A stretch of DNA of 64,000 nucleotides from Candidatus Omnitrophota bacterium (GCA_041651115.1 JBAZJY010000001.1:517165-581164); one strand, 5' to 3'; counted from the stretch's first letter, positions 15,613 to 54,891 are shown. Notes: generated from the sequence alone by a model not told the origin. Made by a program: numbers and translations.

Positions 15613-15665
15613 TTTTGTGTTTCACCTCCCTCTTTGTAATATTTTTGCTGCTAAAAAGAGAAAAA

Positions 15666-16271: not shown

Positions 16272-16275
16272 TTTT

Positions 16276-17618: not shown

Positions 17619-18334
17619 TTTTTTCTCCTTATCCCAAGTAGTCCTAACAATCCTATACCTAATAACGAAATACTCGCAGGTTCAGGCGTTACCGATCCTT
17701 TTACATAATCGTTTGCGCAGGTAGCAGTAGCGTAATGCACGTTGAACGCGCTATCATTAAAGCCGTTTGATCCGGTAATATCAAACTGCGCGCGAATGAC
17801 AAAATCCGGTATGCCGTTAAATCTATCGTGCGTTAAATCGTTCCAGTATCTGGCAACGCTGGACGAATTTGCCAATAGGCTTCCGGAAGCTATGGTTACT
17901 ATCTGATTGGTATTATAGGTGAGGCCAGCTACGGCATAGTGATTAGACAAAAACCAATTATTAACGTTGTATAAGCTGCCAGCTATCAAACCGTCGTGTG
18001 ACGTAACCGCAAGGCCGTATTCATAAATACCATCTGAATCCGCATCTATTGCCAAATCGCCGGGAAATGTTTTCCAGCTGCCGACAGTTACGGTTTCATC
18101 CGTAGGATAATTACCATCATTGGGATAATTAGTATAAATATCAAAAGTAAGGTTATTACCGGAACGAAAAACATTAATGCCATAAAGCTCAAAAACTGCA
18201 TCCCCTACCCTGTCAACCGGGCCATTCTGCCAATTAGTAGGATTATCAATAAGGTCATTGATCGTATAGGCAAATGCCATATTGCTTAATGCCAGAAACC
18301 CGATAAAAGCTAATAAAATAATTCTCTTTATCAT
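17615..18334 (-). CDS. PEP-CTERM sorting-domain protein (first gene of the array)
   Basis: C-terminal TPEPASISLLGIGLLGLLGIRRKK; signal peptide. Confidence 0.8.
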   Translation of the reverse strand: MIKRIILLAFIGFLALSNMAFAYTINDLIDNPTNWQNGPVDRVGDAVFELYGINVFRSGNNLTFDIYTNYPNDGNYPTDETVTVGSWKTFPGDLAIDADSDGIYEYGLAVTSHDGLIAGSLYNVNNWFLSNHYAVAGLTYNTNQIVTIASGSLLANSSSVARYWNDLTHDRFNGIPDFVIRAQFDITGSNGFNDSAFNVHYATATCANDYVKGSVTPEPASISLLGIGLLGLLGIRRKK

Positions 18335-19305: not shown

Positions 19306-20118
19306 CTACTCTAATAATTTTCCCACCAGCATTAATCCTAAGAACGCAAAGACAAACACCAAAAGACCCATTGTATCGTGGAAAACACCCATTGCATATT
19401 TTTCCCCGTATATTTCACTCACTAAGGACAAAGATACTATCCTGATAATATTCGTCGCAACGGCAATTGGTATTGAAGAAATAAATAGTATTGTTCTTTT
19501 TGTCTTTGAAAGATCGCTAAAATACGCCATTAATGCGCCCAGGGCGATCAATGCAATTAATGATCTGATACCGGAGCAAGGATCCTCAACCATTAACCGC
19601 GAATGTGCTGTCTTTATTAAACTACCCTCTAGTATTGCCGGAACGCCTAATTTATTAATGATCAGCGTAGATGCCTGCGCGGCAAATATCTTCAACCGGA
19701 AACTCATATTTGCAATCGCAACCAGGGGTAAAGGTATCATAAAAGCAAGAAATGAGATCGGAAAAATCAATTGCCTTAAATAATCCTTGCCCAAAAATAT
19801 CAATACCAACCCGATTAACACCGGGAGCAAGGAAAACCCGGAAGTAAAATTCACCTGCCAGAGCATACTTACCAAATGCACAGCCATACCGCCGAGAAAA
19901 AAGATCCATCCGGAAGCAGCAGGATGAATTTTTAACTTGCTTAATTTATCCCGTTTAAGCCAAACTAAAAAAATACTGATAAACGGGACCAAAAACCCGT
20001 GGCTATAATAAGTATCTGCGACCGACCATCTGCCGATCATCCATTTAAATGCCGGGATATAAGAAAGTCCGACGATAGCGGCAATTACGGAGAGCTTTAT
20101 CAAGTCAGGCTTTTTCAT
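19306..20118 (-). CDS. exosortase (EpsH/Xrt family)
   Basis: Polytopic membrane protein with the N-terminal YYSHGFLVPFIS motif (exosortase YSHG signature); adjacent to EpsI and PEP-CTERM genes. Confidence 0.7.
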   Translation of the reverse strand: MKKPDLIKLSVIAAIVGLSYIPAFKWMIGRWSVADTYYSHGFLVPFISIFLVWLKRDKLSKLKIHPAASGWIFFLGGMAVHLVSMLWQVNFTSGFSLLPVLIGLVLIFLGKDYLRQLIFPISFLAFMIPLPLVAIANMSFRLKIFAAQASTLIINKLGVPAILEGSLIKTAHSRLMVEDPCSGIRSLIALIALGALMAYFSDLSKTKRTILFISSIPIAVATNIIRIVSLSLVSEIYGEKYAMGVFHDTMGLLVFVFAFLGLMLVGKLLE

Positions 20119-25362: not shown

Positions 25363-26575
25363 ATATCCTTTCCAATGCTGTGGACATAAAAATAAAAAAC
25401 CAGAGAATCCGATCCTGTTGCGCATGCAAGAAGATCCCAGCAATTAAGAACCCAACTAATCCGAGATAAAACCCTTTAGCGTACCCACCAAGATCAGATT
25501 TAGATTTTATTATTCGATTTAAACCCCTAAAAGTATAAAAAATTATACCCAAAAATAGAAAAATCCCGATTGTCCCTAACTCTGCCATCATCTCAAGATA
25601 CATATTATGCGCCCGACCCGGATAAACTGGCGCATAATTACGATTTTCATAATAATAATTTCCTACCCCAATACCAAACAAAGGGTGAGCTAGGAATATT
25701 CTCCAAGCAGCTTGAGATAAATAGTACCGACGCGTAGTAGAATCAATATCGCCTTCACCAGTACCATATGCATTAGCGCTTACTTGTATTTTTCCGAAAC
25801 GCTCACGTAACGTTTGGGGCATCGCACTTAGAAAAATCGCTACTGTAATGCAAACTAATATAATTGTAATTATTTTCCTTTTGGCTTTGAAAACTAAAAT
25901 TAAAAACATCCCTCCTAGACCAACCATACCACCACGAGAAACTGTAAAGACTAATGCAAATAAGATCGTGGCTGCTATTCCAGATAAAATTATTTTTAAA
26001 ACTTTATTTTTTTCAACTAAAAACATATAGAATGTAACCGCAATAAATGGCAGGGTCATAATGGCAAATTCGTTTGGACCGTAACCTGTTCCTCCCGCTC
26101 TGCCTAACCCTGAATAAGATAGCACAGTTTGAATGCAAATAAAAAACATCGCGATTGCGATAAACCAAAGTACTAACTTGAATTGCTTAATTTTATGTAG
26201 CAAAATGATTATAGCTACCCCTAGAATCGCACTTGAAGTAAACATCGTGAAATTTTCTCGGGAAGCAAATCCCGGTTGGGTAACACCGGAAATGAACACC
26301 CAAATTAAAAACAGAAAAAAGTAGCGTATTTGTGGCTTTTTAAAAAAATTCCAGGCTCCACTTCTCCCGCCGTAATGCATTAAAGTTGATATAAAGGTCA
26401 GGCTTCCGATAATTTTAATCGGAGTCACCATGGTAAATAACCCAAGGAAACTGCCTCCTAATGTTTGTTGCGTTGATATAGGAATCAAAATAACCGTAAG
26501 CGCCAAACCAAATATTGGGCTTGCGAAGATTCCTATCGCTAACACTATGCCAACTACAATAAAAATCAGGTTCAT
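25343..26575 (-). CDS. O-antigen ligase/polymerase-like membrane protein (exosortase-locus associated)
   Basis: About 10 TM segments with a central periplasmic loop, Wzy/WaaL-like topology. Confidence 0.6.
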   Translation of the reverse strand: MNLIFIVVGIVLAIGIFASPIFGLALTVILIPISTQQTLGGSFLGLFTMVTPIKIIGSLTFISTLMHYGGRSGAWNFFKKPQIRYFFLFLIWVFISGVTQPGFASRENFTMFTSSAILGVAIIILLHKIKQFKLVLWFIAIAMFFICIQTVLSYSGLGRAGGTGYGPNEFAIMTLPFIAVTFYMFLVEKNKVLKIILSGIAATILFALVFTVSRGGMVGLGGMFLILVFKAKRKIITIILVCITVAIFLSAMPQTLRERFGKIQVSANAYGTGEGDIDSTTRRYYLSQAAWRIFLAHPLFGIGVGNYYYENRNYAPVYPGRAHNMYLEMMAELGTIGIFLFLGIIFYTFRGLNRIIKSKSDLGGYAKGFYLGLVGFLIAGIFLHAQQDRILWFFIFMSTALERIYEKNYS

Positions 26576-28845
26576 TCTTTCACCTTGCTTACTACGATTG
26601 AATACAATTGTTCGGTTCTATCTATTTGCTTCCTGATATCAAATCTTTCTTCAATGTGCCTTCTTGCATTTTCTCCAAAACCTTTAGCTAATTCTCTATT
26701 CTTAAGAAATATTTCAATCCCTTCTTTTAGGGCTATGCTATCTTTAGCAGGAACAATAAGCCCTGTTTTATCATTAACTACCGCTTCCGGACTACCGTCA
26801 ACATTAGTTGCGATTACCGGCTTGCCCATCGCACCCGCTTCCAGCGCCACTAATGGGAGCCCTTCGTATAATGAAGGTAAAACTAACAAATCAATCTCCT
26901 TTAATACATTCTCAATATCTCTTCTGTATCCCACAAATTCTACCCTCTCGGAGATTCCCAACCTTTTAGCTTGCCTCTCAAGCTCATTTCTTAAACTGCC
27001 ATCACCTGCTATTAAGAATTTTACATCATCGTATTTACCATCCAAGAGACTAACTGCATCCAAAAAATATTTATGCCCTTTTTGCGGCTCTAACCTGCCG
27101 ATTACCCCTATCGTAAATAGGGACTGTCCCCGTAGGGGACTGTCCCTATTTACAGAAGGCTTGAACCTTGCCAGGTCAATCCCGTTATGAATAACTTCTA
27201 TTTTCTTCTCATCTAATTCTTTTTCATTGACCAGATAACTTTTTACCGCATTAGAAACCGCGATAATCTTATCCACAAAACGATAAAAAAATCTATCTAC
27301 AAAATATGACCTTTTAATTCCTTTTCGCCACGCCTCCCTTAAATGGCTAGTATCTATTACGACCGGGATACCCGCTAATTTTGCCAATGGCGCGGCAAAA
27401 CGAGTGGCAAAAAATAAATGTGAATGCACAATATCCGGTTTTTCTTCTTTAAGAATACCCATGAACTTCTTTATTTCACTTAAATTACGCCAACGCCTTA
27501 TATCAACAGAATAAAATTTTATTTGTAGCCTTTCCAGATCCGGCTTTATTTGCTCGATCAGTTGCCGCGGACATATAAGAATCGGTTCAAACTGCGTCTT
27601 ATCCAATCCTTCAATTAACCGTAGCACATGTTCCTCTACCCCCGCCCTTACTACTGAATTAAGGAAATACAATACTTTTAGGGACTGTCCCCGTAGGGGA
27701 CTGTCCCTAAAAGCCATCAACTTAAAGAAATCTTTTACATCGTCTATCTTTTGCTCTATCTTTTGGTTACTCACCAATACTGCATCCATCGTGCTATTTT
27801 TAATATCAAACCCATGCATTCCTTGTGGCTGCCTGTTCCCCATAAAACTCGGGTTTATCACTACCCCGGCATCCATCAAAAATATAACTTCGCCATACAT
27901 ATCATTGCTGAAATCAATGCCCAATTCTTTGATTTCATTTTCCGGTAATATCCGGCCATAGCTCTTGGTTTTGAGCACATCTAGGATCGCGCTTTTGGCT
28001 TTCTGATTAAAAAACCAGAAACGCGCCATAGTGGAATCATAAAATGGAACATAATCATTCGGGGCCGTAAATCTAAGCTTCTCGATCTCTGCTTTAAGGT
28101 TTTCACTCTTTTCCACTGGGGCCATGCCATGGTCAGAGAAGATATATAGATTTACATGCCTTGACTTGTCTTTTGCGATCCGGTAAAGGTCCTTGATCTC
28201 TCCTTCATATCCATCTATCGCAGCATTAACCTTTGCCCTATCTTTGCAGGACGAATGCAATAAGGCATCAAATTCTGACAAATACAAGAAATAAAAATCA
28301 CTTTCGCGCTTTTCAATGCTTTCCTTTGCGCCGGTAATGATCTCTTTATCTTTAAGCGGATATGCGAAACAACGGTAACCAGCTCCTTCTTTTTCCAAGA
28401 TATCAAAGATGGTTTCTGCCTCTTCTATACCTTTAGAAGCGTAGATGTTCTTTCTCTCACAGATATCATACAAATAAAGCTGCGCAACAGGAATAAGATA
28501 TGTTTCAAAATAACCCGTATAGCCCATCAAGTGCTTGGATATTTCTTCAATAATTTTGCGCGTTATCCGTAAATTCAAAACTGCATCCGGAAGCCAAAGC
28601 AGCGCCTTAGTCCATCTAAATGGCGAAGTCTTAGGTGAATAAAAATAAAGTGACCAGTGTTTGTGCTCCTGCGGATACTTGCCGGTCAATATTGAAGGGA
28701 TGACCCCGCTGGAAAAGCCCAAAATGCTTTTTACCGGCATTTTCGTAACCGCGATATTATTTAAAAAATGCCTATCCCGGATATATTCCCATCCTAGGGC
28801 ATCAATAAGGATAAATATATTAGTTATTTTATTCGTGTTTTCCAT
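26572..28845 (-). CDS. fusion protein: alkaline-phosphatase-superfamily phosphodiesterase domain + family 4 glycosyltransferase
   Basis: N-terminal half has the AlkP/nucleotide-pyrophosphatase-like ILIDALGWEY motif; C-terminal half (from KVLYFLNSVVRAGVEEHV) is GT-B with EGLPLVALEAGAMGKPVIAT; two in-frame repeat-encoded RDSPLRGQSL peptides. Confidence 0.7.
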   Translation of the reverse strand: MENTNKITNIFILIDALGWEYIRDRHFLNNIAVTKMPVKSILGFSSGVIPSILTGKYPQEHKHWSLYFYSPKTSPFRWTKALLWLPDAVLNLRITRKIIEEISKHLMGYTGYFETYLIPVAQLYLYDICERKNIYASKGIEEAETIFDILEKEGAGYRCFAYPLKDKEIITGAKESIEKRESDFYFLYLSEFDALLHSSCKDRAKVNAAIDGYEGEIKDLYRIAKDKSRHVNLYIFSDHGMAPVEKSENLKAEIEKLRFTAPNDYVPFYDSTMARFWFFNQKAKSAILDVLKTKSYGRILPENEIKELGIDFSNDMYGEVIFLMDAGVVINPSFMGNRQPQGMHGFDIKNSTMDAVLVSNQKIEQKIDDVKDFFKLMAFRDSPLRGQSLKVLYFLNSVVRAGVEEHVLRLIEGLDKTQFEPILICPRQLIEQIKPDLERLQIKFYSVDIRRWRNLSEIKKFMGILKEEKPDIVHSHLFFATRFAAPLAKLAGIPVVIDTSHLREAWRKGIKRSYFVDRFFYRFVDKIIAVSNAVKSYLVNEKELDEKKIEVIHNGIDLARFKPSVNRDSPLRGQSLFTIGVIGRLEPQKGHKYFLDAVSLLDGKYDDVKFLIAGDGSLRNELERQAKRLGISERVEFVGYRRDIENVLKEIDLLVLPSLYEGLPLVALEAGAMGKPVIATNVDGSPEAVVNDKTGLIVPAKDSIALKEGIEIFLKNRELAKGFGENARRHIEERFDIRKQIDRTEQLYSIVVSKVKE
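27118..27148. repeat. 31-nt tandem-REP-like palindrome TAGGGACTGTCCCCGTAGGGGACTGTCCCTA inside the GT4 interdomain linker, in frame
   Basis: Identical to the copy at 27679-27709; translated on the minus strand as RDSPLRGQSL. Confidence 0.85.
27679..27709. repeat. 31-nt tandem-REP-like palindrome at the AlkP-GT4 domain junction, in frame
   Basis: Exact duplicate of 27118-27148 with AT-rich inverted flanks. Confidence 0.85.
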
Positions 28846-40514: not shown

Positions 40515-41303
40515 TTACAGATACCGGTAAATGTAGCCGGGAATGTGGTATTGGATATTGGTCAGAATGTAACCGATGAGTTTGGCTTGAGACTGAAGGA
40601 TCAACTGTTCGCTGTGCTTGATTATGCCCTTCTGGGTCTTCTCTGCCTTTACCACCATGATCACGCCGTCAGTTTGCGCGCCCAGCAACCCTGCGTCGGT
40701 TACCGGGATGATCGGAGGGGTATCAAAAATTACGTAGTCGTATTTCTCCTTAAGCAGGCTAAGGAGATTTTTCATTTTTTGCGAGCCTAAAAGCTCGGAA
40801 GGATTATGGGGGATTTTTCCTGCCGGCAGGATGATCAAGTTGTCTATGCCGATATGCAGCATAGCCTCATCAATGTTGGTGCCGTTGGCAATTAAATCAG
40901 CCAGCCCGGTTTCCGCTTTTACCCCGAGATATTTGCTAAGGCTGGCGCGACGCATATCCGCGTCTACCAGAAGGATCTGCTTTTTGTTCAGGTCGCGCGC
41001 CATAGAGATAGCCAGATTAATAGCGGTAATAGTTTTACCTTCGGCATGATTAGAGCTGGTTATCGTGATCGTCTTTAGCGGATGCTTGGAGCTGATCGCC
41101 TGAAGATGCGTGCGCAAGGTGCGGTATTGCTCGGAAACCGGTGAATGCGGATCGTAAAAAGCCACGATACGCGGGTCAATACTGGAATCCGTGGTCTTCT
41201 TGGCAACGAATTCGTATTTGACTTCGGCTTTTTTCTCTATTTTTTCAATTCTCTGCAATCTCTCTTCGGCTGCTTTTTTTAATGCGTCGGTAATTTTGCC
41301 CAT
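40515..41303 (-). CDS. exopolysaccharide tyrosine autokinase (CpsD/EpsG-like P-loop ATPase)
   Basis: Walker A SSNHAEGKTITAINLA, Walker B LLVDADMR, C-terminal Tyr-rich tail YHIPGYIYRYL. Confidence 0.65.
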   Translation of the reverse strand: MGKITDALKKAAEERLQRIEKIEKKAEVKYEFVAKKTTDSSIDPRIVAFYDPHSPVSEQYRTLRTHLQAISSKHPLKTITITSSNHAEGKTITAINLAISMARDLNKKQILLVDADMRRASLSKYLGVKAETGLADLIANGTNIDEAMLHIGIDNLIILPAGKIPHNPSELLGSQKMKNLLSLLKEKYDYVIFDTPPIIPVTDAGLLGAQTDGVIMVVKAEKTQKGIIKHSEQLILQSQAKLIGYILTNIQYHIPGYIYRYL

Positions 41304-41326: not shown

Positions 41327-42169
41327 TTAAATCGAATCGGGTATCTGAATATCCAAAGGTTTATAATGGAAGTCGCGTTCTTTGGCGACTTCGTTAATGA
41401 TATCCGCGGTGATCTGCTTTGCCTCGCTCACATAGCCGGATAAGAGCGCGCTGTCAGCAAGGATATTGATCAGGCGCGGGGTACCGACTGAATGCTTATA
41501 TAGCGCTTCAATTGCCTCCGGAGTGAAAAGCTCCTGGCTGTTTGGATTAACAAGGCTAAGGCGATGTTTAATGTATTTTTCTGTCTCTTCCCTGTTTAAA
41601 CTATTTAAGTGGCAGTAAACCATGATTCTCTGGCGGAATTGTTCAAGCTTGGGATTCTCAAGTTTTGCCTTAAGCTGTGGCTGGCCCATCAGAATGATCT
41701 GGATGAGCTTTTCCTTCTCGGTTTCAAGGTTTGAGAGCATCCTTACTTCTTCTAAGACCGTAGGGGTGAGATTTTGCGCTTCATCAATAATCAAGACAAT
41801 ATTCATATCAGCGCGCAGCTGCTGAATAAGATATTTATTGAGCTGGGATAATAATTTTTGCTTTGTGCCGGGCTTATAATCCACATCCAGCTCTTCCAGT
41901 ATCTCCGTAACCAACTCCCTACAGGTTAAGTGAGTATTAGTGATCAACGCTACCTTAGTATTCAAATTAAGCTTATTAAGCAGAGCCCTGCAAACCGTGG
42001 TCTTTCCCGCGCCGATCTCTCCGGTGATGACAATGAACCCCTTTCTTTCATTGATCGCATAGATCAGGCTATTCAACGCCTCCGTATGCTTGGCGCTGGG
42101 AAAGAAAAATTTTGAATCGGGCGTAGTATTAAACGGTTTTTCGCTAAAGTTATAAAATTGTTCGTACAC
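41327..42169 (-). CDS. ExeA-like AAA ATPase (PEP-CTERM locus secretion ATPase subfamily)
   Basis: Walker A ITGEIGAGKTTV, Walker B IVLIIDEAQNL; size and neighbourhood match the PEP-CTERM-associated ExeA-type ATPase. Confidence 0.65.
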   Translation of the reverse strand: MYEQFYNFSEKPFNTTPDSKFFFPSAKHTEALNSLIYAINERKGFIVITGEIGAGKTTVCRALLNKLNLNTKVALITNTHLTCRELVTEILEELDVDYKPGTKQKLLSQLNKYLIQQLRADMNIVLIIDEAQNLTPTVLEEVRMLSNLETEKEKLIQIILMGQPQLKAKLENPKLEQFRQRIMVYCHLNSLNREETEKYIKHRLSLVNPNSQELFTPEAIEALYKHSVGTPRLINILADSALLSGYVSEAKQITADIINEVAKERDFHYKPLDIQIPDSI

Positions 42170-42171
42170 GC

Positions 42172-43506
42172 TTATCTCCTAACAAATGAGAATAACAGGG
42201 CCGCGATGATTAACGCAAGCGATGACAATGAAACAACAATTGCCAGCTTTTTTCTCCAGTTCTTTTCTTTATCTATCTCTTCCTGCGTAGTGATGCGCGA
42301 TATCCCGCCTAAAACAGGAAACTTTAAATTATCTTTAGCATCGGCAATGTCTAAAATGGACTGGTCAAGGAATTCACCTGCTAAAACAAGGCCTACTCCT
42401 ACGCCTGCGCCTAAAAGCAGGCCCATAAATATGATCATAGCCTTATTGGGCTTTGCCGGCCGATAAGGAAGCCGTGGCGGGTCAATCACAGTGTAACGCG
42501 TGCCTTGCCTTGACGCTTCCAAGCGCTGGGTGATCTTGGCGGTTTCTAATTTTTGAAGCAGCATATTGTAAATATTTTCGTTGACATTTTTATCCCGGGC
42601 AAGCACGGAATCATACTTATCCATCAGCATTAATTTATAGATCGCGGCATTAGGATCGGTAGCGCCGTTATCGACGCCAAGATACGCAGCTCCTCCGGAG
42701 GTAGTTTCCTGACTAATGACCTTATCCAGTTCCTGCTGCAGCGCCTTATATGCCGGATCGTCTTTTAGCGGAGCAGTGGCAACTTTAAACTCGCCTGATT
42801 CCAGTTCTTTTTTGGCAATATCCAGTTTCTGGCGCAGTTCTCTGACTAATGGATGCTGTTCAGTAGAATCAACCAGCAGGTTCTTAAGCTGTTCTTCCAA
42901 ATCGGAAACCTCCGACTCTTTGATTTTTCTTTTATATACATCAAGCTGTTCCTTGATAAACTCAATCGCCACGTCGGTTTCCTTGGTCTGCGTGCGCATG
43001 TTTTCATCAACCAGGTTGTCGCTTAGGGTCTGGGTAATACGCTGGGTTTGGCGCGGTTCATCGCCAAAATAAGATATCCTGATAATCGTAGGCATATTTT
43101 GCGCGTGCGAGCTCGGGCCGCGCATCTGCACGCTGATATTTTTCCGTAAACCTAAAATAAGGTTTTCAAACTGCTGCTGCGTCTGGATATTTTTTGCCAG
43201 GTCCAGCTTCTTGGTCAATTCTACAAGACTGTTCCATCCCAAGAGCATTTCTTTTATGGTCTGCATCCTTTGGATGGCGGAAGTAGAAACTGCCAGATCC
43301 TGGATCAGCGGGTTAATGATCTTTTCTTCCTCAACCAGGATCAGCGTATAAGCTTCATAGCGCGGCGGCATAACAAAAGCAGCAACAATGCCCAAAACCA
43401 GGCCGATGAACGCCGGGTAAATTACCGTCCATTTACGCCTGAAAAATATCTTTAAGTATTCTAGGGGGTGTGTAACTTTAGCAGTTTCTTGATTTTCCAT
43501 ATTCAT
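42172..43506 (-). CDS. polysaccharide chain-length determinant protein (Wzz/GumC-like, PEP-CTERM locus type)
   Basis: N- and C-terminal TM helices flanking a long coiled-coil periplasmic domain. Confidence 0.65.
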   Translation of the reverse strand: MNMENQETAKVTHPLEYLKIFFRRKWTVIYPAFIGLVLGIVAAFVMPPRYEAYTLILVEEEKIINPLIQDLAVSTSAIQRMQTIKEMLLGWNSLVELTKKLDLAKNIQTQQQFENLILGLRKNISVQMRGPSSHAQNMPTIIRISYFGDEPRQTQRITQTLSDNLVDENMRTQTKETDVAIEFIKEQLDVYKRKIKESEVSDLEEQLKNLLVDSTEQHPLVRELRQKLDIAKKELESGEFKVATAPLKDDPAYKALQQELDKVISQETTSGGAAYLGVDNGATDPNAAIYKLMLMDKYDSVLARDKNVNENIYNMLLQKLETAKITQRLEASRQGTRYTVIDPPRLPYRPAKPNKAMIIFMGLLLGAGVGVGLVLAGEFLDQSILDIADAKDNLKFPVLGGISRITTQEEIDKEKNWRKKLAIVVSLSSLALIIAALLFSFVRR

Positions 43507-43511
43507 CTCTC

Positions 43512-44276
43512 TTATTTAGTGACGAGGTTACTAATCGCGCTCTTAGCGGTAGATGCGCCTTCCGGAGCTGCGCTCATGCCTGAAACAGTCGCGGTTACAG
43601 GATTAATTATGCGCACGATCTTAGCCATAACAGTGCTGGGCACGTACAATACGTCTCCCGGGCGCATATCATAGTTATATTTTAAGTTCCCGCCGTAAAG
43701 CACGGCGTAAAGGTCCACTGCGCGGGTCTTCATATTACCGTTATTATCCGGGGTAATGATGCGGCACTTGCGCATTGCCGCTGCCAGCGTAGGCAGGCCT
43801 GCCTGCACTACCGCTTCCCTGACCGGGATGGTTTCCGAACGCATATAGTATTTGCCGGGCTTGGCAACTTCTCCCAAAACGTAAATCACTTTACTCTTAT
43901 ACTCTACTACTGCCACGTTGATCTCCGGGTTGATGACGTAGACGGAAACTACCTCCTTAAGTTTATCTTCCAGTTGTTTTTTGGTCAGGCCGTTGACGTC
44001 TATGTCTCCGACAAACTTATACTGGAGCTTTCCCTCAAGGTTGATCGGGTAGATGCCGCTGAATTCAGGATGGCGCATTACGCTAACCTCAACAATGTCA
44101 TCCGGGCCTAAAGTGTAACGCAAAGGGTCAAAACCTGATTGCGGGGTGTTTGCGGACGCTTCCTGCGCTACGGGTACTGATGGAAGAGAGATAGTTATCT
44201 CCTCCTCTGCCTGAACTATGCCAAAAAGGGCTAAAATCGCTAAAATCAGGATAAAAAACTTAAAGTTGTTTTTCAT
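43512..44276 (-). CDS. polysaccharide export protein (Wza/EpsE-like, SLBB domain)
   Basis: Signal peptide (start at MKNNFKFF), PGD..YVP polysaccharide-export motif region; first gene of the roughly 29-kb minus-strand locus. Confidence 0.65.
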   Translation of the reverse strand: MKNNFKFFILILAILALFGIVQAEEEITISLPSVPVAQEASANTPQSGFDPLRYTLGPDDIVEVSVMRHPEFSGIYPINLEGKLQYKFVGDIDVNGLTKKQLEDKLKEVVSVYVINPEINVAVVEYKSKVIYVLGEVAKPGKYYMRSETIPVREAVVQAGLPTLAAAMRKCRIITPDNNGNMKTRAVDLYAVLYGGNLKYNYDMRPGDVLYVPSTVMAKIVRIINPVTATVSGMSAAPEGASTAKSAISNLVTK

Positions 44277-44472
44277 TGCCGCTCTCCTCATATATAATTG
44301 TTTCCTTAAAGTCGCGTAATCGCCGGAAGTCGTCCTTATCATAGACGCGCCATCCGCGCCAATCGCGCTTGGGCCGGCTAACCTTGCCGGATTTTTCCCA
44401 GCGGATGATCGTCTTGGGCGTTACCTTGATCCTTCCTGCCACATCCGTAATCGTCATTTTACCGTTACTCAA
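44260..44472 (-). CDS. excisionase-family (HTH_17/MerR-like) DNA-binding protein
   Basis: TITDVAGRIKVTPKTIIRWEKSGK helix-turn-helix resembling Xis/AlpA-type binders. Confidence 0.5.
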   Translation of the reverse strand: MSNGKMTITDVAGRIKVTPKTIIRWEKSGKVSRPKRDWRGWRVYDKDDFRRLRDFKETIIYEESGNEKQL

Positions 44473-47750: not shown

Positions 47751-47933
47751 CTATGAGCAGTCGGGGCGCCAGCAGCAGCTCATCTGGCCGCATCTATCAC
47801 GATAGCCCGTGGCAAAACATTGGGAGTTACCCTCTTGCTTTTGTATGCCGCGGATAAGTTCTTTTTTGGAATACTTCCAGGTGTCCTTGATGCCTTTTTG
47901 TCTTGCCCTTTTTTCAATTTCTGAAAGCCTCAT
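47751..47933 (-). CDS. small Cys-rich hypothetical protein
   Basis: 60 aa with a C-terminal CxxxxxxxC..CC cluster; 3 nt upstream of cstA. Confidence 0.3.
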   Translation of the reverse strand: MRLSEIEKRARQKGIKDTWKYSKKELIRGIQKQEGNSQCFATGYRDRCGQMSCCWRPDCS

Positions 47934-47948
47934 TTCTACTACCCCTCC

Positions 47949-48341
47949 TTATGCTTTATAAACTACGTCGTGCTGCCTAACCCGGGAATTGACCAATAAA
48001 CCGATCTCATCCCCCTTCTTCGCAGAATTTACCGGCACGCGGTCAATCTGCATTGAATCTACGTTTTGCGTAAAGTCGGTGGTGTGGCCCTTTATTTTAA
48101 CTACCACCCCCGCTGTCAAAGGAACCTTTAGTTTGATCACTGCTGCCCGGACATGAGGAAAATAATGCGTAACTATGCCGATAACGTCTTTCTTGGCCTT
48201 AGCCTTTGCCTTGGGATTTTTTGCCTTAATCTTAGGCCTTAGTTTCGGCTTTGCCTTGACTTTTCTCTTAACTGTTCTCTTTACGGCTTTTTTCTTCGTA
48301 GCTTTCTTTTTTACGGGCTTTTTCTTCTTTTTAGTTGCCAT
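47949..48341 (-). CDS. lysine/alanine-rich (histone-H1-like tail) protein with C-terminal beta-barrel-like domain
   Basis: Start moved to MATKKKKKPVKKK (GGAGG SD upstream); about 50-aa KKAK-repeat tail followed by an 80-aa folded region. Confidence 0.45.
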   Translation of the reverse strand: MATKKKKKPVKKKATKKKAVKRTVKRKVKAKPKLRPKIKAKNPKAKAKAKKDVIGIVTHYFPHVRAAVIKLKVPLTAGVVVKIKGHTTDFTQNVDSMQIDRVPVNSAKKGDEIGLLVNSRVRQHDVVYKA

Positions 48342-48358: not shown

Positions 48359-48679
48359 TTAGAGTACGATTTTTTCGGCAAGATCCGTAACAATCGGGAT
48401 GCGGCAGTAATTGCCCAGCAAAGACTGCAGAGATCCCCATAAAAGCGCCAGGAGATAAATATAAGAAGCCCAGTGCCAGACAAATTGCCCTACACCGGGA
48501 ATAACATTAAAAAGAAACGCGCCTACAAGAAAAATGAACAGAACCAGGCCTTGCTTACCATGGTAAACGCAAAATTTATTATCTTTCTTTAAGATCAGCG
48601 GCAAAATGCAGAGAAAGCCCCAGTAGGCGACTACCGCGAAAATCTTTCCCTCTTCTATTTCCTTACTATTCTTCTCCAT
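48359..48679 (-). CDS. DUF4870-like small membrane protein
   Basis: Two TM hairpins with a conserved YHGKQGLVLFI-type motif. Confidence 0.45.
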   Translation of the reverse strand: MEKNSKEIEEGKIFAVVAYWGFLCILPLILKKDNKFCVYHGKQGLVLFIFLVGAFLFNVIPGVGQFVWHWASYIYLLALLWGSLQSLLGNYCRIPIVTDLAEKIVL

Positions 48680-48698
48680 AGCCTGACCCCTAAAACAG

Positions 48699-49808
48699 TC
48701 ACTTCCCTTCTTCTATCTCAAGAAGCGAATTCATCTGGCCAAAGGGATTGACCTGCCTGCGGGGATTTCCGGCGTCTTCCGTCCAGTTGCCGTCAACCAC
48801 AAAGCGATACTGATATTGTCCGGCTTTAAGGCTTACTTTTTTAACCCACGTGCCGTTAGAGCGTTCCATGCGGCTTTTTTCATCCGGCTGCCAGTTGTTA
48901 AAATCGCCTACCAGGTGCACTTCATTGGCATCGGGCGCGGGAAGCGAGAAAATGATCTCGCTAAGTTTGGGCATCCTTTCTTTGACGATTTCATCCATTT
49001 TCTTTTCCAGGGGCTTGCACGCAACAGGCGCGGGAGTTTCCGGGCTGCTCCCTGATTCCTGGATGATCAGCTCACGCGCAAGGCTGTAGTAATCCTTGGC
49101 CCCGCGGCAATATTTATCATAATTTAACACGTAGGTGCCTTCAGTCTGCGCTTCTTTTAGCTTTACGTTTACGTGGATGATGTTGCTAAAAAGCTTGTTC
49201 TTAAAATCCGCGCGGATCTTTTCCAATACCTTAAACGAATGGCGCAGCCGGGAATCAAAATTCGTTACCAGGACTTTATATTCAACGTTGTGGTTTAAGC
49301 GGTCCTTGACTAGGTTAACGATGTCCACCAATTGCGCCAGGCCTTCAAGCGAGAACCTGCTTGCTTCAACCGGGATAATAATCTCCGAAGACGCGCGGAT
49401 GGCGTTTATGGTAAGGATGCCTAAATTAGGCGGGCAATCAATCAGGCAATAGTCATACTTCATGCTGAAGCCATTCAGCGTATCCATCAGGCGGGATTCC
49501 CTGCCGATCTCACCCGCGAGTTCCTGCTCAAGTGTGCTCAAGACAACGCCGGAAGGCGCAATGTCAAAATTGTCCGTTACATTCTGGATGATATCGTGAA
49601 GTTTGGCTCTTTTATTGGTCAGCTTGGAAAGGACGTTGTAAATCGTCAGGTTTGCTTTAATGTTCAAGCCGAGAGTAGCGTGAGACTGCGGGTCAAGGTC
49701 AATCAATAAAACTTTACGGTTATTGCTTGCCAGCGACGCAGCTAAATTTATCGCCGTAGTTGTTTTGCCGCAGCCGCCCTTCTGATTCGTGATGGAGATT
49801 ATACGCAT
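48699..49808 (-). CDS. ParA/MinD-family ATPase fused to a C-terminal CBM48 (AMPK-beta-type glycogen-binding) domain
   Basis: Deviant Walker A KGGCGKTT with a Soj/ParA-like N-terminal 255 aa, then a Pro/Ser linker and [11 protein letters not shown]...[16 protein letters not shown] (CBM48/E-set signature). Confidence 0.75.
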
Positions 49809-49825
49809 TATCGACCCCTCCTAGA

Positions 49826-50389
49826 TTAGCGTAATACTCTAATGTTATCTATATAGACCACGTCCTTTTTATCCTTCGCGTTCCATTCCTCCACGATAAA
49901 CGAGACTTTGGTTATCTCATTCCAATAGCTTATGCCGTGGAATTCGGAAAATTTTACGGCGTAATTATTCCATCTGTGGGGTATGTCTTTAAGATAAAGG
50001 CTGGATCTTTCGTTGAAGGAGTTGGTGAATTCTACTTTGAGCGAAATTTTGTCGGCGTAATTGCTTTTTTTCAAAGCAAAGGCAAGCGTATTGTAATGAG
50101 AGAGATTGAGACGGTTAAGATCTAAGGAAAAAATCTCTTTTCTGGCGGGGTTGAAATTAAAGTTAATTTTCGCCGTATCGGGATACAAAATAAGCGCGAC
50201 CTCAGGCGCTCCAACAGAATTCCTGCCATTCAGGGCAGCGAATGAAAAAAAACCAAGCAAAATTACGACCGCAGAACCGGTGAAGATATATCTATTGAAC
50301 TTATGCTTTTTTTTGTTTTTTTTCTTTTTACTGGATGAAGCGTCGAGATAGATATTTGCAAGATGTTCGTAAATATCTCTCTTGTCCAT
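49826..50389 (-). CDS. hypothetical single-pass membrane protein with Lys-rich N-terminus
   Basis: KKKKNKKKHK cytoplasmic segment, one TM, and a roughly 130-aa beta-rich extracytoplasmic domain; lies between the GH57 and ParA-CBM48 genes. Confidence 0.45.
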   Translation of the reverse strand: MDKRDIYEHLANIYLDASSSKKKKNKKKHKFNRYIFTGSAVVILLGFFSFAALNGRNSVGAPEVALILYPDTAKINFNFNPARKEIFSLDLNRLNLSHYNTLAFALKKSNYADKISLKVEFTNSFNERSSLYLKDIPHRWNNYAVKFSEFHGISYWNEITKVSFIVEEWNAKDKKDVVYIDNIRVLR

Positions 50390-50426
50390 TATGCAAAGTT
50401 ATACCATAAAAGGGGTTAGATGTCAA

Positions 50427-51983
50427 TCATAAACTATTATTCAAATACGCCGGATGCGGTTTGCCGATGATCTGATAAAAATTACGCGCGTGCATGCGGA
50501 ATAATTTATCAAAATCTCCGTTGGGGTCTTCGCCATACCACCAGAACCAGTCGCTTCCTTCCAAAACGCGCATTTGTTTCCACGCCAGCTTAATGTCAAT
50601 GCCGTCTGAACCTTCCTTCTCTATTCTTTCAAGTTCGGAGCGCGCTTCAGTCAGGCTTTCCCACGCGCGATTCTTATGCGGGTTGCCGATCCATTTGCCG
50701 AACTCGCCGTAAATCCATGAGCCCGGGGCAAGGCGCTTGATCTCATGCTCTGCCGGATGTGATTTTAAATATTCCTGCGGCGTGGTTGCGGTAACGAATT
50801 TGGCGCTGGATAAATTTTCATAAAGCAGCTCAAGAAAATCATGGCCGTCATTGGCATAATATTCCCATGCGTTCTCACCGTCCATTGCGATCGTAACAAG
50901 AATATCCTGGTTCTTAAAAGCGGCTGCGATATTTTCCAAATGCTTCATAAAATCGGCAACCGCGGACTTTGAATCCCAGCGATGATAAACAAAACCGATA
51001 AGGTCGGAAAGATTGCGGTCGCGGAAAATAATGCTTAGCTGTCCCTCTTTGCCCTTTAAGAGGTGCGGCTTATATAAAGCGCGGGTATCCCGCTTTTTAA
51101 GGCCCAATGACCTGAATAATATGCCTTCATCGGCAACAATCCATTTAATCCCGGATTCCATAATGAACGGTAATATGTGCCGGCTTACCGCTTCTTCCGA
51201 AGGCCACATGCCCGCCGGCGCCATACCGAAACGCGCCTTGTAGAATTCCACTGCTTCGTCAATTTGCGCTTTGGCATCCTGCGGCCAGCTGAATTGGACC
51301 TGCGGCAGCGTGGTTTTGATATTTGCCTCTTTGGCAGTCTTGGTATTATAAAGCAGCGGCAGTATTGGATGGTAATACGGGCTGATAGAGGCCTCAATCT
51401 GGCCCTTTGCGATGAATTCCTTATAAACGGGGATAACGCCGGAAAGGATCTCTAACTGGGTATTTAAGACAATGGTCTTATCTTCTTCATTGTAGAACCG
51501 GCCTTTGCCAACGATCTTTTTTAATGCCGGGATATTGCGGCGGAAATACGGGTCAAACCAGGCAAGGTTAAACCAAACCTGCAGGTCAAGGAAGTCTTGA
51601 GTGGTAAAATTCTTGCTGGCCTTATGTTTTAGATAAAGCTCGTAGTAACGCGGATGTACTGCAATACACTTTTCAGGGTTAATGCTGAAGAAACGGCTAA
51701 GTAGGAATTCTTTATCCTGTTGGTCAAGCTTATCCGCCGGCTTAAGGGTAAGCTCAAAAAATTTGTCCTTTACTTCGCCGCTAACGTAATCTTCTACCTG
51801 TTCTACCAGCGAAGGCACAAGATTGAATGTCTGGCGCACTGCCGGATACTTATCCAGCATTTTAACCATATCAAGGTAGTCTTTGATGCCGTGCAGCCGC
51901 ACCCAAGGCACATCAGTCTCCTTGGTAAGGAGATTCTTGTAGTACGGCTGATGCATGTGGAAGATAAAGGCGAGGTATAGCAT
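50427..51983 (-). CDS. glycoside hydrolase family 57 enzyme (alpha-glucan branching/amylase-type)
   Basis: N-terminal FIFHMHQPYY GH57 signature; 518 aa as in GH57 branching enzymes. Confidence 0.85.
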   Translation of the reverse strand: MLYLAFIFHMHQPYYKNLLTKETDVPWVRLHGIKDYLDMVKMLDKYPAVRQTFNLVPSLVEQVEDYVSGEVKDKFFELTLKPADKLDQQDKEFLLSRFFSINPEKCIAVHPRYYELYLKHKASKNFTTQDFLDLQVWFNLAWFDPYFRRNIPALKKIVGKGRFYNEEDKTIVLNTQLEILSGVIPVYKEFIAKGQIEASISPYYHPILPLLYNTKTAKEANIKTTLPQVQFSWPQDAKAQIDEAVEFYKARFGMAPAGMWPSEEAVSRHILPFIMESGIKWIVADEGILFRSLGLKKRDTRALYKPHLLKGKEGQLSIIFRDRNLSDLIGFVYHRWDSKSAVADFMKHLENIAAAFKNQDILVTIAMDGENAWEYYANDGHDFLELLYENLSSAKFVTATTPQEYLKSHPAEHEIKRLAPGSWIYGEFGKWIGNPHKNRAWESLTEARSELERIEKEGSDGIDIKLAWKQMRVLEGSDWFWWYGEDPNGDFDKLFRMHARNFYQIIGKPHPAYLNNSL

Positions 51984-52031: not shown

Positions 52032-52403
52032 TTAAGCATATTTCCCGAGTGAATTCTTAAGACCGTTTAACATTTTACCACATTCATTATATTCTTGCAC
52101 AAAATAATTATATTTATCTTCCGCAACATATTGCTTCTTAAAGGCAATTGATATATGATGTCTGGTTTCCTGAATTTCTCCTTGCGCCCGGTTAATACCC
52201 TCTAAATAAATATTTAAATGTTTATTATTCCAACCTTCGGCAAGATTCGCAGGGGCTGAATTAGAAGATCTTCTTAATTGGGAGCCTAACTCATACTTTT
52301 CAAAATCAGGAAATTCCTGTGTTAAAGCAGAAACCTCCAAATGTAGCTTACATAATTTTTGATAAACGTCTAAATCCTCAAAGCTATTTATTTGATTTTT
52401 CAT
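52032..52403 (-). CDS. four-helix-bundle protein (TIGR02436; 23S rRNA intervening-sequence-type protein)
   Basis: DLDVYQKLCKL...SAPANLAEG signature of the family; 123 aa. Confidence 0.75.
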   Translation of the reverse strand: MKNQINSFEDLDVYQKLCKLHLEVSALTQEFPDFEKYELGSQLRRSSNSAPANLAEGWNNKHLNIYLEGINRAQGEIQETRHHISIAFKKQYVAEDKYNYFVQEYNECGKMLNGLKNSLGKYA

Positions 52404-52485: not shown

Positions 52486-53925
52486 TTAGAATGTTACCTT
52501 CATTGAACCGATGACTTCAGTTGCTGTGTTGTCATTCCTATTGGAAAGGGCATTACCCGCCCAATAGACACCGGTCAAAAGGGAGAACTGAACATCTTCG
52601 GTATAATCATAGGTAGCCGTGACATCCAATTCTTGACCTAATCCGCCCTTTTTGGTAAAAACGAGGTTCTGTCCAGGTCTTGCAACACTCGTAGCTACTA
52701 GACCGTTGGTAGACCTCTTTGCCAGCCAATAACCATAATATTCGCCTTTTAAGGTGATATCTTCCATAGGCTTCATTGAACCTTTGATACCAGCTATATG
52801 CTGATTGGTCTGGTTCCATAACACATTATGGATATTGCCGAACGTCTGGTTCTCATACATCGGGTCCCATCCGCGGCGATGGCCTGCGTTGGTATCATAG
52901 TTGTCGCTGTCACCGCTAAAATAGGCATACAAAGCAGTCAAAGAAGGTGTATATTTGACTTTTTTAAAATCATAGGTCAACGACGTTTCCAAAGCCCAAG
53001 CTTTAAGGGCTACGGTCGGCTGAGCCGCAGTATTGGTGTTATATCTACCAAACTGATATGCAACTTCCAACTGATACATAAGATTCTCGATGGGCGTAGT
53101 AGATACGCGGGCACCGATAACATCTGTACGAGTAGGCTTATTAATGTTAGTATTCGCTTTTCTGTCAACGTTTCTTTCAAACCAGTATGCCTCTACCTTG
53201 GTGTTCTTGGTGAGATCATAACCGGCATTCACGCCATAAAGATTGGTGTCATCGTAGCTGTTGGTAACTGCCTCTGCGATCTTTGCGCCGATGATGTCAA
53301 TCACCAAAGGATCATAATTAAGGGTAGCGCGAATAGCATCAAACGACTTACGGGCGCTCAGGTCTGCGTTTAACCTGTTAGCGCTGGTGGTACCCACCAC
53401 GTTACTGAACGGGCTGGCTGAACTAACCGCGTTATTAGTATCAGGATCGCCGACTATCATTTCGTTTCCAAAGTGCAGTTCCTGGCGACCAACTGTCATT
53501 GTCAGAGGAGAATACAAAAACTCTTTCAAAGTCACATAAGCCAAGTCAAGATCAATGTCTGTGTTGACATTTCTGTCTGAACTGGCTGCGACTGAACCCG
53601 TATTCTCTGTTTCGCTACCCCAATATCTTTCGTTGAGTATCCTTACGGTGGTAGAAACATTGTCTGTAAGATCAGCATCAACTCTTACGCGGGCAATGCT
53701 AGCAAGAAAAGTATCCGGATACGTTCCTGTTGTACCGGTTCCGGCGGCCTTGCTATTATTAAGCTCAAGCTGGCGAGCAACACCAAGCACGGTGATGTCT
53801 CCGCTTACTTTAACATTTTGAACTTCTGCGTATGCGGTAAATGTGAGGCCTACCACAAACGCCAAAGCCAAAACTAATATCAAGCGTTTACTCATTTGTG
53901 TAACCTCCTTTAAAATTCCAAACAA
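52486..53925 (-). CDS. outer-membrane beta-barrel porin-like protein
   Basis: Signal peptide, alternating amphipathic beta-strands, C-terminal ...KVTF aromatic terminus. Confidence 0.55.
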   Translation of the reverse strand: MFGILKEVTQMSKRLILVLALAFVVGLTFTAYAEVQNVKVSGDITVLGVARQLELNNSKAAGTGTTGTYPDTFLASIARVRVDADLTDNVSTTVRILNERYWGSETENTGSVAASSDRNVNTDIDLDLAYVTLKEFLYSPLTMTVGRQELHFGNEMIVGDPDTNNAVSSASPFSNVVGTTSANRLNADLSARKSFDAIRATLNYDPLVIDIIGAKIAEAVTNSYDDTNLYGVNAGYDLTKNTKVEAYWFERNVDRKANTNINKPTRTDVIGARVSTTPIENLMYQLEVAYQFGRYNTNTAAQPTVALKAWALETSLTYDFKKVKYTPSLTALYAYFSGDSDNYDTNAGHRRGWDPMYENQTFGNIHNVLWNQTNQHIAGIKGSMKPMEDITLKGEYYGYWLAKRSTNGLVATSVARPGQNLVFTKKGGLGQELDVTATYDYTEDVQFSLLTGVYWAGNALSNRNDNTATEVIGSMKVTF

Positions 53926-54206: not shown

Positions 54207-54233
54207 TAGGGACGTCCTTTCAGGTACCACCCT
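54207..54233. repeat. REP-like element copy (CTAGGGACGTCCTTTCAGGTACCACCCT) overlapping the AbiEii stop codon
   Basis: Shares the GGGACGTCC...GGTACCACCCT core with 56435-56460, 57148-57173 and 60295-60320. Confidence 0.75.
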
Positions 54234-54891
54234 GCAAGGCCGCTTTTATCTTCATCTCCAAAATAGCGAATTTTTTTGCAGTGTAATACCTACGCTCATC
54301 TTCCTCCAATAAAGAACCCAGCTTTACGGAGTAATCTTTTGCAGTAAAAGACGTTACCCCTCTTAACAGTCTTTCCAAAACCTCGGCAGGCTCATCCAGC
54401 GCTGCGCCTTTTTTCAAAAGAAACTCAATGTCAAAGGCGTCACGGATCTCTTTTCTGTCTAAAAGCGCCCGGATTTTTGCCGTCAGCATATCCTTTAAAG
54501 ACAGGGCATTCAAAATAACCTGCACGTTTGAATACTTGCTGTATGCGATGGACCGTTCTGATTTTACGGCCTTAAGCTCTTTTCTGATCTCCAGCTTCAG
54601 GGCCCGCGGAAAATTTTTTGACCGGATCTCAAAAAGTATTGTATAAAATTTATCCGTTGCGTCTTTTACCGTATAATAGCGGCTAAGGCAATCCTTTAGA
54701 TTGCGGAATAATTTTTGGGCATCGGTTTTTTTATTGAGCCAAAAATCCAAATCTACGGAAAACCGGTTTAAACCGTAACAGAGCCTAAGCATTGTGCCTC
54801 CGCCAAAAACAAGCCCGCTCAATAATTTTGCGCTGTTTAGCCGATCCAAAACCTCTAATTCAAATTGTTCCTGTTTTATGAGATCCCGCAT
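54220..54891 (-). CDS. AbiEii/DUF1814-family nucleotidyltransferase toxin
   Basis: LVFGGGTMLRLCYGLNRFSVDLDF NTase motif characteristic of AbiEii. Confidence 0.7.
   Translation of the reverse strand: MRDLIKQEQFELEVLDRLNSAKLLSGLVFGGGTMLRLCYGLNRFSVDLDFWLNKKTDAQKLFRNLKDCLSRYYTVKDATDKFYTILFEIRSKNFPRALKLEIRKELKAVKSERSIAYSKYSNVQVILNALSLKDMLTAKIRALLDRKEIRDAFDIEFLLKKGAALDEPAEVLERLLRGVTSFTAKDYSVKLGSLLEEDERRYYTAKKFAILEMKIKAALQGGT

Follow-up and report, generated by a model that had tools for sequence, protein, structure and literature searches.

Within a 64,000-nucleotide (nt) stretch of the genome of a Candidatus Omnitrophota bacterium (GCA_041651115.1 JBAZJY010000001.1:517165-581164; hereafter the window, with positions counted from its first letter), the minus-strand gene at 48699-49808 encodes a protein of 369 amino acids (aa) in which a ParA/Soj-type ATPase is fused to a carbohydrate-binding module (CBM) of the AMPK-beta type, CBM48. 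Judged from its sequence, this fusion is a Soj-derived ParA with intact signatures for ATPase activity, DNA binding and the glycogen site. Our favoured, still tentative, reading is that it belongs to an orphan ParA-plus-partner module that would link intracellular alpha-glucan to the nucleoid or the envelope, and so serve the spatial organisation or inheritance of glycogen. That this amounts to a widespread, unrecognised system which uses ATP to tether, space or segregate glycogen granules, and which a trans-membrane partner couples to the envelope in Omnitrophota, is possible, and we put it forward with less confidence. ParA/MinD ATPases place chromosomes, plasmids, carboxysomes, chemoreceptor arrays, flagella and division sites; to our knowledge glycogen is not among their cargos, and its subcellular distribution in bacteria is usually regarded as passive. 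The idea of active positioning or segregation of glycogen is suggested by the domain content of the protein. It goes back to a first interpretation of the same DNA (the sequence-only reading), which did not recognise such a function as described; our search of 7.7 million PubMed Central (PMC) papers and bioRxiv likewise turned up no account that connects a ParA-type ATPase with glycogen or CBM48. A ParA acting with a partner is a known class of mechanism; the novelty lies in a glucan receptor that is part of the ATPase, in the cargo presumed for it and in the partner proteins.

The ATPase takes up about aa 1-255 of the fusion (nt 49044-49808), a Pro/Ser-rich linker with a short helix aa 256-292 (nt 48933-49043), and the CBM48 aa 293-367 (nt 48708-48932), all on the minus strand. 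In Pfam searches the ATPase part matched AAA_31 (residues 1-176, E=1.7e-54), CbiA (2.8e-19) and CBP_BcsQ (2.3e-11), and the C-terminal part matched AMPK1_CBM (PF16561; residues 293-367, E=2.1e-14, 53.9 bits versus a cutoff of 26.8) and CBM_48 (PF02922; E=1.3e-7, 32.3 bits versus 22.4). The matches to AAA_31, CbiA, AMPK1_CBM and CBM_48 exceed the curated Pfam cutoffs, which covers the CbiA/ParA and AMPK1_CBM/CBM48 profile searches that the sequence-only reading had proposed and identifies the C-terminus as a CBM. Its description of a complete Soj/ParA-type deviant-Walker-A ATPase, joined through a Pro/Ser linker to an AMPK-beta/CBM48 module, was thus borne out, and the motifs it quoted are present. 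NCBIfam returned partition-, MinD- and BcsQ-type models only, each under its equivalog cutoff.

This domain arrangement is that of a large conserved family. The 120 top-ranking homologues, at 69-100% identity to the protein of the window, have both domains without exception, and the organism names given for them are all Omnitrophota. Among 50%-identity cluster representatives, which are 34-58% identical to the window protein and have linkers of about 10 to about 290 aa, 132 of the best 150 have a ParA at the N-terminus and one CBM48 at the C-terminus. A search for the Walker A pattern, with each species represented by one genome, gave at least 600 pattern stretches, of which 594 were confirmed as relatives, so that fusion relatives with NQKGGCGK occur in at least 594 species genomes. 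The best 80 of the 594, which were the ones examined, all span residues 1 to about 365 and are full-length fusions from more than 10 phyla, including Omnitrophota, Planctomycetota, Myxococcota, Desulfobacterota, Gemmatimonadota, Acidobacteriota, Zixibacteria, Eisenbacteria, Rokubacteria, Margulisbacteria and Auribacterota, among others; fusions from Nitrospirota and Krumholzibacteriia were found in a separate search. By these sequence comparisons, the fusion family is ancient and widespread. A one-off fusion or assembly artefact, as the sequence-only reading had worried, is ruled out by the at least 594 species and the 132 of 150 two-domain representatives. Seven further proteins (P0122, P0209, P0228, P0229, P0234, P0260 and P0265), of 568-1812 aa, lack an ATPase domain and are built from 5-18 CBM48 repeats of the AMPK type in tandem; they scored high against the fusion query via the CBM alone.

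The ATPase motifs are kept throughout the family. In the Walker A sequence K10-G-G-C-G-K15-T, the signature lysine K10 and the catalytic lysine K15 are present in 122 of 122 fusion representatives, as are D37 and D39 of the Walker A' motif and D124 of Walker B. A deviant Walker A with the signature lysine, together with the A' and B motifs, is what defines a ParA (PMC9178275). The closest solved ATPases in a PDB search were of the chromosomal ParA/Soj type (8RAY ParA, 7e-55; Thermus Soj, 3e-39). R187 of the fusion aligns with R189 of Bacillus subtilis Soj, which we take to be the arginine for non-specific DNA binding, and is Arg in 107 of the 122 representatives, while K216 and K218 are K or R in 96 and 101 of them, respectively. 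With the reference sequences used, Soj R189 landed on the DAR motif, as expected, and the alignment to AMPK is consistent with the PDB search. The family also has signatures of its own, Cys13 in KGGCGKT (117/122) and His43 in DPQxH (119/122), and because of these we regard it as a distinct ParA clade. The P-loop Cys13 replaces the usual residue of KGGVGKT, and a redox-sensitive ATPase is conceivable.

For the CBM48, the closest solved structure was that of AMPK beta1 (1Z0N, E=1e-10); the glucan phosphatases SEX4 and LSF1 came next, and after them pullulanases and GlgB. In AMPK beta1, glycogen binding is lost with the substitutions W100G and K126Q and weakened with W133L and G147R (PMC6274970). 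The equivalents of the first three positions in the fusion are W306 (131 of 131 representatives), R335 (K or R in 125 of 131) and W342 (127 of 131); that of G147, G357, is invariant in a 38-sequence alignment (A1), and N360 is N or D in 119 of the 131. Since the sugar site has been kept so well across phyla, we argue that alpha-glucan binding is what selection probably maintains in this domain. One rival to this reading is that the CBM48-like domain does not bind glycogen and would instead be a protein-protein or oligomerisation module or bind another glycan, with the cargo of the ParA set by its partners: a membrane complex in Omnitrophota, and a NucS-like or ParA-like protein elsewhere. The AMPK beta CBM does make protein contacts as well, the bodies of the partners are wholly different between phyla (see below), and beyond one subclade there is little linkage to glycogen genes. 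Nevertheless, the positions of the AMPK beta1 glycogen mutants are invariant or nearly so in 131 representatives at 34-58% identity, which would be hard to explain without selection on the sugar site, and the best matches are all alpha-glucan binders; we therefore consider this rival rather improbable.

As the ATPase is closest to chromosomal Soj/ParA, and automated annotations say 'chromosome partitioning protein', an ordinary chromosome- or plasmid-partition ParA with an accessory domain and a ParB encoded elsewhere has to be weighed. A phmmer search with the Spo0J probe gave no ParB match in the window or in 88 loci (87 with the fusion). A regular expression for the ParB arginine patch, GERRxRA, gave a single match over the same sequences, in a 100-aa open reading frame (ORF) 5.5 kb from the fusion gene in a Myxococcota locus (L052), and ParB was absent from the Pfam tables of 12 neighbourhoods. 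With tblastn, the fusion was found on 0 of 72,556 plasmids, the matches being confined to the ATPase domain, and the C-terminal half of the fusion matched only CBM48 'isoamylase early set' proteins there. A plasmid-partition role is thereby ruled out, as the C-terminal part of the ParA and the CBM occur together on none of these plasmids, and so is a ParB partner encoded in these loci, as the Spo0J and GERRxRA searches over them were essentially empty. The sequence-only reading had named homology to plasmid-partition proteins with ParB partners as what would speak against it; neither an adjacent ParB in the 87 loci nor plasmid carriage was seen. Chromosomal parA-parB pairs are normally adjacent, and an adjacent parB in 0 of 87 loci from more than 10 phyla, together with the distinct clade marked by Cys13 and His43 and the non-ParB partner genes of the family, makes ordinary partition the least probable of the explanations considered here, even though partner peptides in other phyla mimic the ParB N-terminus.

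To find such partner genes, ORFs were called and clustered in the 87 fusion loci, in which we refer to those with a fusion 51-100% identical to that of the window as Omnitrophota-type; ORF calling is crude in high-GC loci, so that partner counts are lower bounds. The candidate partner in Omnitrophota is a 187-aa protein, here called TM190, encoded just upstream of the fusion gene (49826-50389, minus strand). TM190 occurs in 29 Omnitrophota-type loci and lies directly upstream on the same strand (position -1) in 27 of them, the other two not being position-indexed. Starting reciprocally from TM190 homologues, the fusion was the next gene in 3 of 3 loci, of which one has a GH57 gene and two, near-identical places, do not. 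The 516 homologues of TM190 carry no Pfam domains, and the named ones are all from Omnitrophota. A distant relative, c26, with a weak Pfam match to CBM30 (E=0.0014), occupies position -1 in loci whose fusion is about 39-46% identical to that of the window.

An AlphaFold2 model of TM190 (mean pLDDT 82) consists of an N-terminal helix (aa 3-19, nt 50333-50383), a disordered poly-Lys juxtamembrane stretch, a transmembrane (TM) helix (aa 29-54, nt 50228-50305) and a nine-stranded beta-sandwich resembling CBM11/30 (aa 65-186, nt 49832-50197). Because the Lys cluster precedes the TM helix, the positive-inside rule implies that the N-terminus lies in the cytoplasm and the CBM-like domain outside it. 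The N-terminus is the most conserved part, with 11 of the first 18 residues invariant among 33 homologues at 48-79% identity (K3, I6-Y7-E8-H9-L10-A11, I13-Y14 and A17-S18), giving the helix motif (D/E)IYEHLAxIYL; invariant residues of the C-terminal domain are W140, W156 and E167-E168-W169-N170. The small single-pass membrane protein with a poly-Lys N-terminus of the sequence-only reading is supported as to its membrane anchor, and what is conserved is the N-terminal amphipathic helix, not the poly-Lys stretch.

The fusion is accompanied in each lineage by a neighbour of that lineage's own, whose product starts with a short conserved helix, and outside Omnitrophota the candidate partners are different proteins. 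In Myxococcota, Nitrospirota and Krumholzibacteriia two genes without Pfam matches come after the fusion gene. Of the loci without TM190 and c26, 52 have enough downstream sequence, and in at least 23 of these the +1 gene begins with a ParB-like N-terminal peptide, located 28-396 nt past the fusion stop codon. Its pattern is [RK]-x-L-x-[DE]-[VI]-[SL]-H-Φ-F-[LMI]-[SP], often LGRGLE(D/E)VSHLFLS, with a Myxococcota variant R(D/N)L(S/G)(D/E)VLHYF(L/I/M)P; loci L039, L043, L051, L055, L057, L060, L062 and L086 are among those that carry it. We take this peptide to resemble the N-terminal LG(R/K)GL..AL peptide of ParB/Spo0J. The candidate partner peptides are accordingly TM190(1-28) for Omnitrophota and, for the LGRGL type, LGRGLEDVSHLFLS. 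The ParB N-terminus is known to stimulate ParA (PMC9178275). Behind the peptide, these proteins continue in one of two ways, as a second ParA/MinD-like protein (Pfam AAA_31/CbiA) or as a domain of about 200 aa; the profile of the latter gave NucS as its sole PDB match, at a non-significant E=0.12 that makes it a lead only. BLAST found no homology between the small Omnitrophota proteins and the neighbours in other phyla. From their sequences, the +1 proteins look like an undescribed family of non-ParB ParA partners. In eight loci, mostly of Myxococcota or 'delta' affiliation (L004, L040, L047, L050, L052, L071, L079 and L087), a wider neighbourhood is conserved as well, with a MerR-family regulator upstream of the fusion, an alpha/beta hydrolase and a phosphoglucomutase/phosphomannomutase (PGM/PMM) gene downstream, and, encoded on the other strand, an ATP-cone/AAA protein; L004 further has ArsA-like ATPases and a phasin/polyhydroxybutyrate (PHB)-accumulation gene within 8 kb.

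The second gene upstream of the fusion in the window (50427-51983, minus strand) encodes a 518-aa GH57 enzyme (PF03065, E=8e-60), whose nearest solved relative is the Aquifex aeolicus amylopullulanase AaApu (8ZYI/9JLQ, E about 1e-87). The two proteins align end to end, including the five conserved GH57 regions HMHQP, GQIEA, WPSEE (with the nucleophile Glu), DGENAW (with the acid/base Asp) and EGSDW, and thus the Glu/Asp dyad; the window enzyme differs in being about 40 aa longer and in coming from a mesophilic metagenome-assembled genome (MAG). AaApu breaks down glycogen, starch and pullulan with the catalytic dyad E256/D352 and has the conserved GH57 regions (PMC12106739). Since HMHQP starts at residue 9, there is no signal peptide, and the window GH57 is by its sequence a cytoplasmic enzyme of the alpha-glucan-degrading/debranching type. 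The sequence-only reading had called it branching- or amylase-type: the GH57 assignment stands, and a branching enzyme is ruled out by the amylopullulanase-type relatives and conserved regions. Besides the window, 16 of the 29 loci with TM190 have a GH57 gene, which mostly sits at -2, between an AlgE-like porin gene and TM190; L092 has one too. No glycogen synthase is evident in the window. Omnitrophota MAGs are reported to encode glycogen synthesis widely (PMC8542988).

ORF calling of the window reproduced the coordinates, strand and spacing of the four genes first noted, GH57, TM190, the fusion and MP108, which are all on the minus strand with gaps of 37, 17 and 19 nt. MP108 (48359-48679) is a small multi-pass membrane protein of 106 aa, found at +1 in 15 of the 15 Omnitrophota loci that have it, and 48% identical to its orthologue in L001. 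It had been named a DUF4870 membrane protein; a membrane protein it is, and the family assignment is weak, as the window protein has a sub-threshold match to TIC20 (E=0.0036) and the L001 orthologue a 'weak' one to PF09685 (MamF_MmsF), which we take to be the former DUF4870. Two conserved genes prolong the cluster beyond this set. KRICH (47949-48341, minus strand) encodes a Lys-rich protein of 130 aa (starting, according to gene callers, at Met34 of a 163-aa ORF), with a disordered, histone-H1-like Lys-rich tail at aa 1-50 and, behind it, a small beta-barrel of the type of the U32-peptidase C-terminal domain or translation-factor domain II; it occurs in 23 Omnitrophota-type loci, at +1 or +2 in 21. 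The Cys-rich 60-aa protein s60 (47751-47933, minus strand, 15 nt from KRICH) is conserved in several Omnitrophota genomes as the small gene that closes the array, and CstA comes next. By eye the N-terminal half of s60 is Rho_N/SAP-like, and its C-terminal half has the Cys-rich pattern CxxxxxxxCxxxxCCxxxxC. TM190, MP108, KRICH and s60 gave no significant family in Pfam or NCBIfam. In a scan of the window no terminator-like site was found in the short intergenic gaps, the counts of promoters and terminators overall being at chance level. Given this and the gaps of 15-37 nt, the array fits an operon, in which GH57 is apparently co-transcribed.

An outer-membrane beta-barrel protein of the AlgE type (Alginate_exp, PF13372, E=1.4e-35; 52486-53925, minus strand) is encoded further upstream and has a counterpart upstream in 19 loci. 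Gene insertions split this porin gene from the core, a gene for a 23S-rRNA-intervening-sequence protein in the window and toxin-antitoxin and AbiE genes in L007; such insertions surround the core and never lie within it. The porin gene is probably transcribed on its own, and we count it as no more than a tentative member of the system. It brings to mind cellulose secretion, in which BcsB is a TM-anchored periplasmic CBM-like subunit, BcsC/AlgE an outer-membrane channel and BcsZ a glycoside hydrolase, and by analogy the fusion could belong to an apparatus for secreting or handling an envelope polysaccharide. As in BcsQ-BcsB, a ParA/MinD-family ATPase is here paired with a TM-anchored protein bearing a CBM-like extracytoplasmic domain; the CBP_BcsQ match, the conserved porin and the glycoside hydrolase within the operon would fit as well. 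Against this, the conserved core has no bcsA-like synthase or glycosyltransferase, the GH57 and the CBM48 are predicted to be cytoplasmic, the latter being alpha-glucan-specific by family, mobile genes separate the porin from the core, and the fusions of other phyla have neither a membrane partner nor a porin. The Walker A motif also differs, KGGCGKT with the signature lysine in the fusion versus RGGVGTT in BcsQ (PMC9178275). We regard an envelope apparatus as very unlikely.

Under the favoured reading, that of a module linking alpha-glucan to nucleoid or envelope, the ATP-bound ParA dimer would sit on nucleoid DNA and display two flexibly linked CBM48 modules, which would keep glycogen particles on the nucleoid. 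The N-terminal peptide of the partner would then trigger ATP hydrolysis and release, resetting the ATPase, in the way that the N-termini of ParB, McdB and MinE stimulate their own ATPases. As the Omnitrophota partner TM190 is fixed in the inner membrane, release would take place at the cell periphery, and glycogen would be either confined to the nucleoid zone or passed to membrane sites. Such a system would be a tether with spatially patterned release and not a classical ratchet with a cargo-borne activator. In the Omnitrophota subclade with GH57, the cytoplasmic amylopullulanase-type enzyme would supply alpha-glucan processing. The organisation and inheritance of glycogen might be most important in very small cells with few granules.

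Several observations weigh against this reading. The first concerns the partner: because TM190 is membrane-anchored with its CBM-like domain outside, it cannot ride a cytoplasmic granule as ParB and McdB ride their cargo, so that the activator-on-cargo arrangement does not apply in Omnitrophota and a simple McdAB-style granule ratchet is not a direct consequence of the data. In addition, the TM190 helix and the LGRGL..SH.FLS peptide share only a hydrophobic and acidic pattern. The second concerns linkage to alpha-glucan genes. We searched the flanks of the fusion with E. coli GlgA, GlgB, GlgC, GlgP, GlgX, MalP and MalQ, the window GH57 and PGM as seeds. GH57 linkage is limited to one Omnitrophota subclade, about half of the Omnitrophota loci, and is absent from most other phyla and from most of the more divergent Omnitrophota loci, in most of which TM190 comes straight after the porin gene. 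Among about 55 non-Omnitrophota loci, only about 3 have a definitive glycogen gene within 10 kb, which is near chance. Besides the GH57 genes of Omnitrophota, the search gave a distant GH57 and a GlgA-like gene 2-5 kb from the fusion in L043 (Thermodesulfobacteriota), GlgB at 1.5 kb in L072 (Desulfobacterota) and GH57 at 7.8 kb in L051. PGM/PMM genes were found 1.6-5.4 kb from the fusion in 9 loci, most of which share synteny and are phylogenetically related. Finally, the best 80 genomes of the species scan are all MAGs. The operon with GH57 and the synteny with glucan genes that the sequence-only reading had proposed thus hold for one Omnitrophota subclade and fail in most of the more divergent Omnitrophota loci and in most other phyla; a universal synteny with glycogen genes is ruled out, the linkage being lineage-specific. 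We conclude that alpha-glucan gene linkage is supportive and not universal.

The membrane-fixed partner, which is ill-suited to a cargo ratchet, also bears on a further explanation, namely that the fusion is a sensor or regulator of glycogen or energy status and not a positioning machine. In this variant, ATP-dependent dimerisation would make the CBM48 bivalent, so that at high ATP the protein would be sequestered on glycogen or mask it, and would be freed when ATP drops; its output would be the gating of degradative enzymes such as GH57, or the titration of a ParA-type regulator as Soj regulates DnaA. The CBM is of the AMPK-beta type, with its known role in glycogen sensing by an energy sensor, and a degradative amylopullulanase-type GH57 lies in the operon here. 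On the other hand, a conserved DNA-binding Arg and a dedicated partner peptide of the activating type are features typical of positioning systems that form gradients, neither an output domain nor a regulatory target is apparent, and GH57 is missing from most loci. On balance we consider a sensor unlikely, though the likeliest of the rivals.

The favoured tether reading can be set beside several known systems. With chromosomal Soj/ParA-Spo0J/ParB-parS (type Ib) the fusion shares the ATPase domain, the Walker motifs, the R189-type Arg and LG(R/K)GL-like partner peptides, and it differs in lacking an adjacent ParB, in its extra C-terminal CBM48, in the Walker A sequence KGGCGKT, and in its partners, which are a CBM-like membrane protein, a ParA-like protein or possibly a NucS-like protein. 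Like McdA-McdB, PomXYZ, PpfA-TlpT and MipZ, it is an orphan ParA that has the gene of a small dedicated partner as its neighbour and, presumably, a cytoplasmic body other than DNA as its cargo. In McdAB-type systems a cargo-borne adaptor recognises the cargo, whereas here the cargo module is fused to the ATPase; neither carboxysome genes nor an McdB-like partner were seen in the fusion loci. The fusion also keeps the signature lysine that the McdA Walker A, SGGQGKT, lacks (PMC9178275).

On the side of the CBM, the domain belongs to the same subfamily as the AMPK beta CBM (PF16561), with the equivalents of W100, K126, W133 and G147 kept. Eukaryotic glycogen receptors such as Atg45 and STBD1 likewise couple glycogen to a cell machine through a CBM (PMC11145338, PMC12913940). 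Unlike AMPK, Atg45 and STBD1, the fusion is bacterial, and its CBM is joined to a P-loop positioning ATPase and not to a kinase scaffold or an autophagy receptor. Among storage granules, the nearest parallel in proposed logic is PhaM, which tethers PHB granules to the nucleoid and is not an ATPase: in both cases a single protein would bridge storage granule and DNA, the granules being inherited with the chromosome, and in contrast to PhaM the tether of the fusion would be ATP-switched and reset by a partner.

If this reading is correct, a storage polysaccharide would be the first carbohydrate cargo of the ParA/MinD family, with the receptor built into the ATPase. The family would offer a testable handle on the active organisation and inheritance of bacterial carbon stores and, as a natural ParA with a fused cargo adaptor, would be useful for defining the minimal requirements of such systems. 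It also defines candidate new partner proteins with ParB-like peptides of the activating type.

Elsewhere in the window, a large exosortase/PEP-CTERM exopolysaccharide locus lies on the minus strand at 15001-44342. It includes genes for Poly_export (43512-44342), Wzz/GNVR (42172-43506), an AAA_22 ATPase (41327-42169), a BY-kinase-like AAA_31 protein (40515-41303) that is a second member of the ParA superfamily, unrelated to the fusion, a Phosphodiest+GT4 fusion (26572-28845) among many glycosyltransferases, exosortase EpsH (19306-20118) and five small secreted proteins (15001-18334), two of which were scanned and carry PEP-CTERM motifs. GC content drops to 33-39% at 24-40 kb of the window. Relative to L001 and L008, the exopolysaccharide block, CstA and a Fic/HTH (helix-turn-helix) pair lie between s60 and a DUF134 gene (8629-9000), and because of this placement they look like an insertion. 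On the other side of the array, the gene for the 23S-rRNA-intervening-sequence (bAvd-like) protein is at 52032-52403, between the AlgE-like porin and GH57, and an AbiEii gene is at 54220-54891, just past the porin; an overlapping 196-aa ORF after it, extending to 55466, is AbiEi-like in appearance and a candidate for that role. Around the porin, small mobile or defence genes seem to cluster in a hotspot, as the toxin-antitoxin and AbiE genes of L007 are located there too.

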